NCBI GenBank assembly: GCA_964579055.1
Contig: CAZOFX010000003.1
Location: 39,551-103,550, forward strand
Length of the DNA: 64,000 nt
Reading direction: 5' to 3'
From: an uncultured Pirellulales bacterium
Lineage (GTDB): Bacteria > Planctomycetota > Phycisphaerae > Sedimentisphaerales > Anaerobacaceae
The notes under the pieces were generated by a model. That model had not been told where the DNA came from and did not search any database. It was given only the letters and a program-made list of their open reading frames with translations. Every line of letters begins with the position of its first letter. The stretch's first letter is position 1. The position numbers and the translations under genes are program-made. This document shows positions 16,211 through 58,518 of the stretch, in pieces.

Positions 16211-16326
16211 GGTAGGACGCTCCTCATTGTTTGCGTGCCGATTGGCAGCTCAACGCGAACGCACGACATCGGCGCATTGTATCGGGCCTTCGAGAGGCGT
16301 CAAGCACGTGTCCAATGTGCAGAACT

Positions 16327-16443
16327 GGGTGGCAGCCTCAAGCGAAGCTTGGGGATGGCGGACCTCTCTGTGGCATAGATGGCAGGAGAAACCTCAAGGT
16401 GTTGAGCCATCCCCAAACGCCAAGGCGTTTGAGGCTGCCACCC
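16327..16443. repeat. Four-way-junction palindromic element, copy 2
   Basis: 15-bp perfect outer stem gggtggcagcctcaa/ttgaggctgccaccc, 11-bp inner stem, two side hairpins. Confidence 0.9.
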
Positions 16444-16516
16444 GTGTCAGGCATCTTCCTTGCCCTTTCGGGCGGTCCGGCCCATAATGGCTCGAACGGA
16501 ATGGCGCTCGTGAAGC

Positions 16517-16930
16517 TTGAAAGGTACGTCAGTGACGGATTCGGAGCGATTCGTGGCTTACTACGTTGAACGGCTTCGCGCCGGTGAGGATGCCTTCTTT
16601 CCTTTGGTCCAAGCTGAAGATGCTGTCGTACCCATACTGATTGAAGCATTCAGAACTGAACATGATCCAGATGTGCGTGCCGCTTTGGTGGAGATAATCT
16701 GGCAACATCGCATTCCGGAGACCATCGAGTTCTTGTCCCAGGCACTGACCGATGACGTGCCAGAGGTCTGGAAGAATGCTCTGGATGGACTGGTCGCATT
16801 GGGCGGAGAAGCCGCAATTGAGGCCTTGAAACGGGTAAGAGATCGAATATCGGTTCATGGACAGGCAACGGCTGGCAAGGTAGAGTGGATCGACGAAGCC
16901 GCATGCCAGATCAGAGAAGGTCTGATTTGA
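16517..16930 (+). CDS. HEAT-repeat protein
   Basis: LIEAFRTEHDPDVRAALVEIIW, ALTDDVPEVWKNALDGL. Confidence 0.75.
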   Translation: MKGTSVTDSERFVAYYVERLRAGEDAFFPLVQAEDAVVPILIEAFRTEHDPDVRAALVEIIWQHRIPETIEFLSQALTDDVPEVWKNALDGLVALGGEAAIEALKRVRDRISVHGQATAGKVEWIDEAACQIREGLI

Positions 16931-17952: not shown

Positions 17953-18273
17953 CCCATGCCTCCCGTATTTGCCCTCGATTGGAAACATACGTGCAATAAC
18001 GCTGTTCCATTGCTCGTTTCCCGTTATACGCCGGCCGGAGGTGTTTTGTGCGGTAGCAGATCGACGCCGGTCGCCGGCCGGCGCCCGACGCCGGGGTCAA
18101 CCGCGTTCCATGTATGTGAAAACATCCTGCCACACACGACAGTAGGGTTTGCGGTGAGATCTGGGCAGACGAGATTCCGCTGTCACGGCGCGATAGACGT
18201 TGTCGCTCGGTACCGCCTGCGGTAGACTGGGCCGAACTGGAGAACCATGACCTCAACTACAGGAGAATGTGTG

Positions 18274-47491: not shown

Positions 47492-49285
47492 ATGATGCGC
47501 GTCGCCTCGATGTTGATGGTTTCGCTCTTGCTTTCCCCGGTTTTGGCGCAGGAGGGAGGGACTGCGAATCCGCCGCAGCGGGAGCGGACGATCGCACTGC
47601 CTGTGGGGGAGTACGCCGCTGTGCTTCGGGCCCAGATGGAAAGCCTTGAAAAAGAATGGGGAAAGTCCCCGGCCAGCCTGGCGGAGGCCCATGCGAGGCT
47701 GGAAGAGATCGTGTCTCCTGAGACGTTGGCGAAGATCGATGCCATGCCATCCGAAGAGGGCATGATCGATTATCATTTCGGATTGGGGCTGAGCATGCGC
47801 AATGCCTGGGGACTGTGGGCAGATTCGGCATTGGCCAGGCACATGAAGGAACTGGGATTCACGAACGGCGACGAGATGTCGGGGACGATTCTCGCGACGT
47901 TCTGGTGCAAGCGACACGGCAGGGATTTCCGCCTGGAGGAGCGGGCCGCCAGGTACAAGAAGCTCCGCGAGAAGCAAGAGAACCGTATCCCCAGGGCCCG
48001 CGCGGCGCTGCGGGACAGGATGATGGGGTTGCGTTTCGAGAAGCGGGATGTTCCCAAGGTATCCGTTGCCGTCCGTCATTCCGGTGTGCGGCCGCGTCTG
48101 GCGTGTCCCTTTCGCAACGGCGTGTTCCTTACCGTCTACCACCAGGGTCGTCTGGTACCCAAGTGGGTCTCGATGCACGAATCGTATGTAGATCCGAATG
48201 GCGACGTACGCCCGACGTCGGAATACGGTGACTTCGCCCACTGGGGATATGGCTTCGATCCGACGGAGGGCAAGATCCGCAAGATGAGACCAGGGGAGGA
48301 CTCCTACACGCAGGGATACTACTTCGACCCGGCGGACGGCAAGCTCCATAGGATCTGCGTGCCGGAAGTCAACGAGGTTTATGCGGCGGTCGTGGCCGGG
48401 GACAGGGCGTGGTTCGCCGGCCTGACCGATGGCAGGCTCGTCGCAGCGGGCGTCGGCAACCAGGGTCGCCTCACGGTACCCTTGCCGCAGGACGATGAGA
48501 TGCCCGATCTGGGCATAGATGGCCAGTCCTTGTTGGCCGTGTATACCAAGACGATCTATCGCCTCGCGGATCGCACCTGGACGGTCGTTTCTTCCGGAGG
48601 CATCTTCTTGCCACGGTCCGGATTGCCGCCGCGGTTATACGGCGATACCCTCTTCTTCCGAGACGAAGATGACAGTTCGGACCCCAAATGCAGGCGATTG
48701 TGGTGGTTGACCATGGCCGAGCCGTTGCATCTGAGTGGCCTCGACCGCGACGTAAGGGTACTTCGCCAAGGGGGACCGCAGTGGGACGAAGTGACCTCCT
48801 ATTGTGTGACGAGCGATGGCGATTTATGGGCGTGTGTCGGCGAACACTACCTGTCGAATTGCCTGTTTCGTCGATCCAAGAACGGAGACTACTCGATCGC
48901 CATCCTGGGTAGTTCCGTTCGCTTTCTCGAAGAGGGCTGGCCCAATAGGCGGCACGCGTATCAAGGCGCGTCCGTCTCGGCGATTGCGCCCTTGCCCGAT
49001 GGCACGCTTCTTCTCGCTGGTCGCACCGGGCTCTATCGCCTCAATGGTGACGAACTGATCCAAGAACTCGAATTCACCGTCAAGGGGCCTCCAAAGGGGC
49101 CTCCAGATGATGTACTCGATGCGGTTCGCCACCAGAAGTGGATTCCGAACAATGTTCTGCAGCTTGATGACAGGTCTTTTTTCATCACAACGGATTCGTG
49201 GGAGGGCGCCTACTGGCTACGCCAGGGCGAGGACGGCCAGTGGAGTTGTCTGCCCCTGGACGAGGGCGATCCCGTCGTCTGGTGA
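47492..49285 (+). CDS. Secreted protein with DUF6794-like N-domain and propeller-like C-terminus
   Basis: HFGLGLSMRNAWGLWADS...GDEMSGTIL resembles DUF6794. Confidence 0.7.
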   Translation: MMRVASMLMVSLLLSPVLAQEGGTANPPQRERTIALPVGEYAAVLRAQMESLEKEWGKSPASLAEAHARLEEIVSPETLAKIDAMPSEEGMIDYHFGLGLSMRNAWGLWADSALARHMKELGFTNGDEMSGTILATFWCKRHGRDFRLEERAARYKKLREKQENRIPRARAALRDRMMGLRFEKRDVPKVSVAVRHSGVRPRLACPFRNGVFLTVYHQGRLVPKWVSMHESYVDPNGDVRPTSEYGDFAHWGYGFDPTEGKIRKMRPGEDSYTQGYYFDPADGKLHRICVPEVNEVYAAVVAGDRAWFAGLTDGRLVAAGVGNQGRLTVPLPQDDEMPDLGIDGQSLLAVYTKTIYRLADRTWTVVSSGGIFLPRSGLPPRLYGDTLFFRDEDDSSDPKCRRLWWLTMAEPLHLSGLDRDVRVLRQGGPQWDEVTSYCVTSDGDLWACVGEHYLSNCLFRRSKNGDYSIAILGSSVRFLEEGWPNRRHAYQGASVSAIAPLPDGTLLLAGRTGLYRLNGDELIQELEFTVKGPPKGPPDDVLDAVRHQKWIPNNVLQLDDRSFFITTDSWEGAYWLRQGEDGQWSCLPLDEGDPVVW

Positions 49286-58436: not shown

Positions 58437-58518
58437 GGGTAGCGGTCTCAAGTCCGAACGATTTGGGGATGGTTCTCAAGGTTGAGCCATCCCCAAGCTG
58501 CGCTGGAGGCTGCCACCC
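58437..58518. repeat. Four-way-junction palindromic element, copy 3 (reverse orientation, degraded)
   Basis: Reverse complement gggtggcagcctccagcgcagcttggggatggctc...ccatccccaaatcgttcggacttgagaccgctaccc. Confidence 0.85.

Follow-up and report, generated by a model that had tools for sequence, protein, structure and literature searches.

What is the 117-nt sequence at positions 16327-16443 of a 64,000-nt stretch of DNA from an uncultured Pirellulales bacterium (assembly GCA_964579055.1, contig CAZOFX010000003.1, positions 39,551 to 103,550; the whole stretch is called the window here), which can be drawn as a four-way junction with compensatory changes? [quoted passage not shown] The window corresponds to C3:39551-103550 of its own assembly, G000 (5.66 Mb, 197 contigs, 62.6% G+C, 92.6% complete), and the other G-numbers denote the genomes of relatives. 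Our analysis of these sequences indicates, with a probability of about 0.85, that the element is a non-autonomous REPIN/MITE-like repeat made from the two hairpin-bearing ends of a unit that encodes a REP-associated tyrosine transposase (RAYT).

Structure and folding of the element

The element is a full copy of the long form of its family, in which two inverted REP-like ends lie around a 47-nt centre. Its parts follow one another as GGGTGGCAGCCTCAA-GCGAAGC-TTGGGGATGGC-(46 nt)-GCCATCCCCAA-ACGCCAAGGCGT-TTGAGGCTGCCACCC, and their positions are as follows.

16327-16341 and 16429-16443: outer arms, GGGTGGCAGCCTCAA and TTGAGGCTGCCACCC
16342-16348: mini-hairpin, GCGAAGC
16349-16359 and 16406-16416: inner arms, TTGGGGATGGC and GCCATCCCCAA
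16417-16428: second hairpin, ACGCCAAGGCGT
16327-16358, plus strand: left end (half-unit), with tag GGGTGGCAG, hairpin CCTCAA-GCGAAGC-TTGGGG, and tail ATGG
16407-16443, minus strand: right end (half-unit, pattern match), reading on that strand GGGTGGCAG, CCTCAA-ACGCCTTGGCGT-TTGGGG, and ATGG
16359-16406: variable centre, a diverged member of the GGACNTNNCTG...GATGGCAGNAG subfamily that ends in CTCAAGGTGTTGAG beside the inner arm

The stems, hairpins, and arms proposed earlier were all located at these coordinates, and the folding was far above chance when compared with dinucleotide-preserving shuffles. As RNA, the whole element had predicted energies of -70.8 kcal/mol (z -6.9) for the plus strand and -65.1 kcal/mol (z -5.2) for the minus strand, and the values for the two strands as DNA were -37.9 kcal/mol (z -6.8) and -35.2 kcal/mol (z -7.3). 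The ends also folded by themselves as DNA hairpins, the left one with -10.3 kcal/mol (z -3.0) and the right one with -12.7 kcal/mol (z -5.0). The minimum-energy folds contained both the outer and the inner stem together with the side hairpin of 12 nt; the 7-nt GCGAAGC mini-hairpin was absent from the predictions of the energy model. C-GNA-G loops such as that of GCGAAGC are reportedly classic, very stable DNA mini-hairpins (a matter associated with Hirao and co-workers), so that their presence here fits a structure formed on the tag strand at the DNA level, not at the RNA level. The element has neither a GTAG end nor a target duplication, on which we agree with the initial annotation.

A structured noncoding RNA gene or a cis-regulatory RNA, for which the four-way junction would be the selected fold, could account for the very stable RNA folds predicted for both strands. 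The two strands fold equally well, however, and a search of Rfam gave no match, either for the whole window at the gathering score or for 16250-16520 at E<=1.

The repeating unit is a single tagged hairpin

The unit that repeats in this family is one end, which consists of the tag GGGTGGCAG, a hairpin (CCTCAA, a variable GNA-looped apex, and TTGGGG), and the tail ATGG, and a full element is composed of two such ends in inverted order around a centre of 13 or 47 nt. Each half-unit is a long hairpin, in which CCTCAA pairs with TTGGGG (with one G·T) and a variable apical hairpin is stacked on top. The own genome contains 110 half-units (pattern GTGGCAGCCTCA, 4-45 nt, TGGGGATGG), in which the tag and the tail are invariant. 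The insert was a perfect simple hairpin in 81 of the 110, with 14 different stems, compared with 3.6% of the shuffles, and the loops of these 81 on the tag strand included GCA (38), GAA (10), GTA (6), GGA (5), and ACA (4), the first three making up 54 of the 81; their complement was never observed on the tag strand in the own genome. Most of the other half-units have a longer, two-tier hairpin with a conserved GTA/GGA internal loop (e.g., ACC-GTA-GCGCAGC-GGA-GGT).

The half-units make up about 44 full copies and at least 25 half copies in the own genome, with a short form of about 75 nt (13-nt centre), a long form of about 110-125 nt (47-nt centre, several subfamilies), and a few minimal forms. 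Many of the solo halves end exactly after TTGGGGATGG, and no target-site duplication was found among the 44 full copies. By a stricter cross-genome pattern (TGGCAGCCTCA-N5-30-TGGGGATGG), which matched 89 times in the own genome, each of 12 congeneric genomes had from 1 to 209 matches, the family thus being present in 12 of 12, and there were 1, 31, and 89 matches in three other genera of the same family and 28 in one genus from another family of the order. The reversed control pattern gave no match in 41 genomes, and the repeat family is accordingly real. GTAG REPs also occur in the own genome, as separate families.

To assess compensatory change, 41 distinct half-units with a 13-nt insert, taken from the own genome and relatives, were aligned. 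In this alignment, 98% of the cells were paired, and three stem positions had three to four pair types. Doubly changed cells in the end hairpin numbered 45, compared with 11.7±4.7 in shuffled alignments (none of 500 reached 45) and 0-9 after the partner column had been slid, the shuffle controls here and below taking no account of relatedness among the copies. The family thus shows true compensatory variation, but located within the single end. Between the ends, the sole variable position, the base just outside GTGGCAG/CTGCCAC, was paired in 20 of the 44 elements against 15.2 expected (Fisher p=0.43), indicating that the two ends vary independently. The inter-end stems are complementary by construction and almost invariant and, hence, uninformative as to selection on the junction, and no evidence of selection on the four-way junction as such was seen at the inter-end position of the 44 elements. 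Because the ends are inverted and each bears a hairpin, the four-way junction is a by-product of the architecture; one strand by itself can form either two separate hairpins or a cloverleaf, which is the four-way junction. The earlier proposal that the junction is the selected structure is thus not borne out, and the covariation supports the hairpin within each end instead.

The structured-RNA explanation could also draw on stems that covary while the loops are conserved. The copies, however, are found in either orientation and in spacers of all three kinds (divergent, tandem, and convergent) as well as in frame within genes; solo halves are common, and the element is present or absent at orthologous sites in different species. 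In addition, the position between the ends is without covariation, the GNA triloops closed by C-G have the signature that is said to mark stable DNA mini-hairpins, and the same ends stand about 560 nt apart around a transposase gene in related genomes, where no local junction is possible. We therefore regard a structured RNA, which the initial annotation had kept as an alternative, as extremely improbable.

The same ends bracket a RAYT gene in relatives

A transposase or RAYT gene flanked by the repeat, the existence of which had been raised as a possibility in the initial annotation, was found in relatives. Weak Y1_Tnp matches of about 190 aa across the genus pointed to G010:C8 and G006. A protein search with the G003 homologue gave intact or broken copies in G003, G012, G006, G008, G010, G025, G026, G030, G035, and G036, and the gene can occur in two to three diverged copies, as in G006, which has two copies and a fragment. 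The gene encodes 186-190 aa and lies between one left and one right half-unit, which are about 560 nt apart, so that the whole unit is about 0.7 kb. The arms around it are as follows.

G012 (L048), G026 (L047), and G025 (L055): canonical arms, GTGGCAGCCTCA(A), hairpin, (T)TGGGGATG(G), and the inverse
G006 (two copies): GTGGCAGCGTCAA / TTGGCGATGG, variant stem CGTCAA/TTGGCG
G003: GTGGCAGCGGCAA / TTGCCGATGG, variant stem CGGCAA/TTGCCG
G036: GGGTGGCAGCCACT... / ...AGTGGATGG, variant stem CCACT/AGTGG
G030: GGGTGGCACCTTCAA / TTGTGGGTGCC, CCTTCAA/TTGTGGG, basal stem imperfect

Outer-arm changes in G006, G003, and G036 have their counterparts in the inner arm of that end, and pairing within the end is thereby kept. 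In G026, the gene is only 65% identical and its neighbourhood is A+T-rich, yet the arms are letter-for-letter those of the window copy, which speaks for recognition of the arm sequence.

Two homologues scored 101.9 and 97.7 bits with the NCBIfam model for REP-associated tyrosine transposases (NF047646; cut-off 80), and the score with the NCBIfam IS200 model was 26 bits, under its cut-off of 55. The H-u-H, FWQ, and Y-x-H-x-N-P motifs were invariant in seven homologues, and Y-x-x-x-N-P together with HuH is the signature of class-2 TnpA_REP (Quentin et al. 2018, PMC6006769). The sole relative in the PDB was Escherichia coli TnpA_REP (4ER8, E=3e-8). No further domain was listed by the Pfam and NCBIfam scans, the latter giving two Y1 transposase models alone for the two homologues. 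Taken together with presence that varies between congeners, the occurrence of the same ends around a RAYT upholds the earlier view of the element as a MITE- or REPIN-like mobile repeat.

GTAG-tagged REPs were observed to interrupt two of the RAYT genes, at 2013-2078 of L051 (G010:C8) and at about 1990-2120 of L050 (G008:C34). They also lie inside copies of the GGGTGGCAG family at two contig starts of G000 (C52:1-75 and C129:1-90). The REP families of these genomes thus nest into one another.

Breadth across the Planctomycetota

A scan of one genome per GTDB species identified 273 stretches that encode relatives of this RAYT, nearly all of them in metagenome-assembled genomes of Planctomycetota (Phycisphaerales, Sedimentisphaerales, and others) and a few in Zixibacteria, KSB1, and other bins. 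The anatomy of the ends was counted in the best 80 of the 273 loci, and a GGTGGCA-type tag (with at most 1 mismatch) was found within about 430 nt on both sides, in inverted order, in 70 of them. Among 129 ends with an exact G[GT]GTGGCA, 60% had an uninterrupted stem of at least 8 bp that started 0-2 nt past the tag, compared with about 3% of the shuffles. The tagged ends at RAYT loci had 36 different stem sequences, and the tail past the hairpin was ATGG or TGG. Across 20 ends of equal length, the pairs of the basal stem switched between CG and GC, between GC and CG, and among UG, GC, and AU, and 28 cells were doubly changed, compared with 8.2±2.1 after shuffling (0 of 500). The conserved plan of each end in the superfamily is therefore a tag, a hairpin with free sequence but preserved pairing, and a tail, which makes the end a REP by construction in which GGGTGGCA replaces GTAG.

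Copies in the window and turnover of the family

Besides the element, the window holds three further members of the family.

1472-1548: short-form copy of 77 nt with a 13-nt centre, within the lnt reading frame (called gene)
58437-58518: decayed short-form copy, left arm GGGTAGCGGTCTCAA and right arm TGGAGGCTGCCACCC, directly past a stop codon
8379-8419, minus strand: degenerate solo half-unit, GCAGCAGCCTCAA-TCCCGATACACATCGCGA-TCGGGGATGG

As described in the initial annotation, the lnt copy has alternative hairpins, GCGCAGC and AGCCTTCGGCT, at the corresponding places, and the copy at 58437-58518 has part of the centre in common with the element, CTCAAGG(T)GTTGAGCC beside the inner arm. The latter copy has at least three arm mismatches and only a weak DNA fold (z -2.5). 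The differences between the element and the lnt copy had been read as compensatory changes; covariation does hold for the family, but the differences between these two copies are better read as the replacement of whole hairpin modules than as pairs changed step by step. At the lnt site of G003 (L063, G003:C83:30450-31000), the right half of the element alone remains, and a GTAG-type REP (GTAGGGGCAACCCCCCGTGGTTGCCC) stands in place of the left half, still in the lnt frame region; the insertion at this site is old and remodelled.

Comparison with relatives gave further evidence of turnover. The site of the window element is occupied in G000, G003, and G004 and is without it in G002, G012, and G005, which have other sequence there, and the orthologous copies decay differently, with CCATTCCCAA in G003 and the loss of one inner-arm base in G004. 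In G012:C88 (L007) and G005:C23 (L008), the spacer orthologous to 16211-16500 has 7-nt periodic repeats in the element's place, with units CAGTTCC/CAGTTGA/CAGTTCT... followed by CCGCCAA units. G000 and G003 have flanks with about 90% identity and share most of the copies tested. At C14:11212, the copy is 124 nt in G000 and 93 nt in G003, the shorter one having lost 26 nt of the centre and 5 nt of a side hairpin, which indicates that deletion can turn long forms into short ones. The copies at C2:2790 have wholly different left side hairpins in the two genomes (CTCCGGAGGAG against TCCCGCACCGGCGTCGGTCGGGA), indicating that hairpins are replaced and not solely mutated pair by pair.

The empty sites in relatives that the initial annotation had in view were found both as presence or absence at orthologous sites and as a clean gap in G003 at C18:47920, where G000 has a composite of about 235 nt (C18:~47860-48090). 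Such composites arise because about 14-20 long copies are nested in a second MITE with the ends GTGTGTGAAAACATCCTG... and ...ATCTGCACAGACAC (GTGTGTG...CACACAC), which is about 100 nt by itself and about 220-235 nt with the nested element. Copies of this host MITE without the core are located at C38:~25419, C162:~3789, C14:7530, and 18114-18175 of the window, and the subtype of its B arm correlates with the centre subfamily of the nested core. The core-less host MITE reads ...AACATC-CTGCCAC..., and the filled one reads ...AACATC(CTGGCATGCGTGTGGCAGCC...TTGAGG)CTGCCAC.... The difference between the two is seamless, ATC(CTG GCATGCGTGTGGCAG...TTGAGG)CTGCCAC, with a 3-nt ambiguity (CTG) and no duplication. 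The boundaries can be written as C^T cuts on both sides, ATCC^TGGCA and GAGGC^TGCCAC.

These observations also bear on the idea that the element is an ordinary cut-and-paste MITE of a DDE transposase, with double-stranded termini and target duplications, and that its association with a RAYT is incidental. The long, perfect inverted termini would suit such an element, as would the position of the 14-20 long copies inside the element of about 220 nt with GTGTGTG...CACACAC ends, which G003 cleanly lacks and which has a possible 4-bp GTCC duplication. This possible duplication belongs to the outer host MITE, however, and was seen at one site, whereas the GGGTGGCAG element is without target duplication and its gain or loss in the host MITE is seamless. 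Neither a DDE transposase nor a shared gene was found beside the half copies; all-against-all blastn of 2.5-kb flanks and inspection of the open reading frames (ORFs) between neighbouring copies gave ordinary genes beside the solo halves (SppA, DUF433-like, and others). Given also that 70 of the 80 RAYT loci are tagged on both sides, a DDE-type origin appears very unlikely.

Search for the gene in the own genome

Several results weigh against the derivation of the element from a RAYT unit. First, no RAYT of the GGGTGGCAG family was detected by tblastn and protein searches in the own assembly, at 92.6% completeness and in 197 contigs; tblastn with the relatives' RAYT matched only a domain embedded in valS, with E about 1e-5. 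Second, the abundance of the repeat and the presence of the gene correlate poorly across genomes: G005 (119 half-units; 98% complete, 40 contigs), G022 (89), G004, and G009 are without the gene, G026 has an intact unit but no other copy of the repeat, and the arms of the gene in G003 are of a variant type, not the abundant canonical one. Third, the centres of the elements had no similarity at E<=0.01 to the interiors of the RAYT units, and an origin by internal deletion is therefore claimed no further than for the ends of the element. Furthermore, the seamless difference in the host MITE fits insertion as well as excision, its direction being ambiguous, and C^T cleavage, action on single-stranded DNA (ssDNA), and hairpin exchange are transferred here from another RAYT.

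Considering the first of these points, the copies in the own genome are either orphans, which persist and decay, or served by an unassembled gene. Nine ends of the family lie within about 350 nt of a contig end in the own assembly, and short-read metagenome-assembled genomes easily lose a 0.7-kb unit that is enclosed by high-copy repeats, so that the gene may simply have escaped assembly.

Four Y1_Tnp matches in the own genome were considered as the cognate RAYT and rejected, since none is flanked by the GGGTGGCAG family. The Y1 genes on C130 and C9 have another inverted repeat (TAGGGACAG.CACCTATT) at their flanks, the match on C21 is a broken gene among GTAG REPs, and that on C67 is the domain within valS. 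The two genes on C130 (11350-12150) and C9 (62650-63470) encode about 240-250 aa between the flanks AATAGGTGACTGTCCCTA / TAGGGACAG.CACCTATT and are probably a separate unit of the TIRtron type, that is, a RAYT-like gene within long terminal inverted repeats (TIRs); by reading of the sequence, the gene on C9 is followed by tandem (T)AGTTACC repeats. The valyl-tRNA synthetase ORF at G000:C67:27193-30873 (minus strand) has 1227 aa and no stops, and at about aa 250-440 it includes, in frame, a RAYT-like Y1 domain with the motifs HVHVIV, FWQEE, and YLLQNP (Pfam Y1_Tnp, 29.1 bits; cut-off 23). This domain is flanked in frame by another REP family (CGTGGCGAGGGCGTC... / ...GACGCCCTCGCCACG), and G009 and G005 have equally long open frames (1218 and 1256 aa, respectively) with a Y1 domain of this type. 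It looks unusual for an essential gene to contain a whole REPtron that is read through.

Possible mechanism

For E. coli TnpA_REP, it is known that the enzyme acts only on ssDNA, that it needs a folded REP with a 5' tag, that it cuts at C^T, also within the complement of the tag, and that inverted REP pairs can be cut on both strands, the strand transfer by the enzyme diversifying the bacterial interspersed mosaic elements (PMC3333891, PMC8266576). By analogy, the RAYT of the present family may bind the folded, GGGTGGCA-tagged hairpin on ssDNA, for instance at replication forks, and could cleave the tag's complement at C^T (GGC^TGCCAC) and rejoin the strands. Elements would then be excised or inserted without target duplication, and hairpin modules and centres could pass from copy to copy through the same strand transfer. 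Such binding, cutting, and rejoining would account for the solo ends, the doublets, the seamless gain and loss, the independence of the two ends, and the replaced hairpin modules.

This scheme can be carried further, to a compact RAYT that is still active, moves its own 0.7-kb unit, and swaps apical hairpin cassettes and centres, while doublets are kept near promoters in divergent spacers. We think that this extension is unlikely. If it were true, cassette swapping would explain both the unrelated hairpins in orthologous copies and the GNA loops on the tag strand, and a selfish element would double as a tunable, promoter-proximal, cruciform-prone DNA structure across the Phycisphaerae.

Gene context and position near promoters

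The surroundings of the copies were determined with our own codon-model gene caller, the calls of which are heuristic. Among the 44 full copies, 6 are inside genes, 15 in divergent, 19 in tandem, and 3 in convergent spacers, and 1 is at a contig edge. Divergent spacers thus hold 15 of the 37 intergenic copies, compared with a share of 15.5% in the number of spacers (Fisher p=3e-4) and of 24% in their length, and the enrichment is modest, about 1.7-fold, once the length of the spacers is counted. Classical REPs favour the 3' side of genes, according to a REP survey (PMC3733652), whereas the copies described here are not concentrated behind genes or in convergent spacers. The window element separates two divergent genes and is located 16 nt upstream of a promoter-like site:

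16460-16488, plus strand: putative promoter TTGCCC-17 nt-CATAAT, outside the element; recognized by visual comparison with the sigma-70 consensus; conserved in G003, G004, and G002

A HEAT-repeat ORF at 16517-16930 (Pfam HEAT_2, 4e-11) between the element and the DUF386 gene was found in G000 alone; in G003, G004, G002, G012, and G005, the DUF386 gene comes directly after the promoter-like site. This marks the ORF as a lineage-specific insertion beside the element.

This location raises the question of whether the element has been taken over by the host as a signal at the DNA level, such as a cruciform or a protein-binding site near promoters, with the copies then being maintained for their use to the host rather than by transposition, which would be compatible with an origin from RAYT ends. 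Many copies are old and common to species with flanks of 80-91% identity, the arms are conserved letter for letter across genera, including G026 with its diverged RAYT, copies persist in genomes where no RAYT was detectable, and the preference for divergent, promoter-bearing spacers and the position of the window copy beside a conserved promoter-like site point in the same direction. The 1.7-fold enrichment rests on heuristic gene calls, however, and orthologous copies decay, as described above for G003, G004, and the copy at 58437. Moreover, G002, G012, and G005 are without the element at the same promoter, and recognition by a transposase predicts the conservation of the arms equally well. 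A role as a host signal is, thus, improbable.

Comparison with known repeat systems and significance

The family resembles the REPIN-RAYT systems, or REPtrons (Nunvar 2010, PMC2817692; Bertels & Rainey 2011, PMC3116915; Ton-Hoang 2012, PMC3333891), in that tagged hairpins are found both alone and as inverted doublets around a spacer, the copies numbering tens to hundreds and many of them being vertically common to species, and in that an HUH-Y1 gene is flanked by the same repeats, here in relatives, without target duplication. It differs from them in its tag, which is GGGTGGCA(G), not the GTAG (or CGTC) of the Di Nocera superfamilies, in its two-tiered hairpin with a conserved basal stem and a freely replaced apical mini-hairpin, in the position of the gene between exactly one left and one right end in a compact unit of about 0.7 kb, and in its host, a planctomycete of the Phycisphaerae type. 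The statement in the initial annotation that the element is distinct from the REPs hence holds at the level of the family, given its tag, but not in kind, since it is itself a REP.

In layout, the closest systems are the TIRtrons and their TIRYT genes. The survey of Di Nocera et al. 2013 (PMC3733652) describes RAYT-like genes within long TIRs unrelated to GTAG REPs, some of these TIRs being self-complementary, moderately abundant families organized as dimers, and a poor correlation between the presence of the gene and the abundance of the repeat. Here, too, a RAYT-like gene lies within long inverted repeats that are also dispersed as a family. The motif reported there, GGGGWSAS, is not matched by GGGTGGCA, however, and most TIRYTs belong to TnpA_REP subclass 2.1 with a C-terminal helix-turn-helix extension (Quentin 2018, PMC6006769), whereas the present protein is short, with 186-190 aa.

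Insertion sequences (ISs) of the IS200/IS605 family (IS608 and ISDra2) likewise have a Y1 HUH transposase, subterminal hairpins on ssDNA, the use of which would apply here by analogy, and seamless insertion and excision without duplication. Their ends, however, are not inverted repeats and carry both hairpins on one strand, and the present protein is below the IS200 cut-off (26 versus 55 bits) and has the class-2 Y-x-x-x-N-P motif. The Correia/NEMIS, ERIC, and RUP MITEs are also about 100 nt, have inverted termini, are dispersed, and sometimes affect neighbouring promoters, but they have target duplications and originate from DDE-type ISs, whereas the core described here has neither feature.

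In the literature, the arm sequences were found only in unrelated mammalian primers, with no bacterial context, and a search for Phycisphaerae together with REP, MITE, or tyrosine transposase listed no paper naming that group. The REP survey (PMC3733652) has no Phycisphaera entry and does not describe the GGGTGGCAG family. Considering that the GTAG/CGTC tag, the GGGGWSAS motif, and the long protein are all lacking, and that no description was found, we conclude that the repeats form a new family of the REP/REPIN-RAYT (TIRtron) kind, which adds to a known class of selfish DNA rather than to the structured RNAs.

The finding has consequences for annotation, as it explains very stable palindromes that can be mistaken for RNA genes or terminators, as well as in-frame insertions such as that in lnt, and it illustrates that apparent covariation of a four-way junction can come from two inverted copies of one selected hairpin. 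It also provides a well-delimited REP/RAYT family from the Planctomycetota, a phylum with abundant but barely described repeats. With its non-GTAG tag, its layout of one left and one right end around the gene, and its fixed hairpin base with an exchangeable apex, this family is a clean substrate for questions of RAYT recognition and cutting, in which the enzyme could be asked what it reads, whether the tag, the stem geometry, or the loop, and where it cuts.

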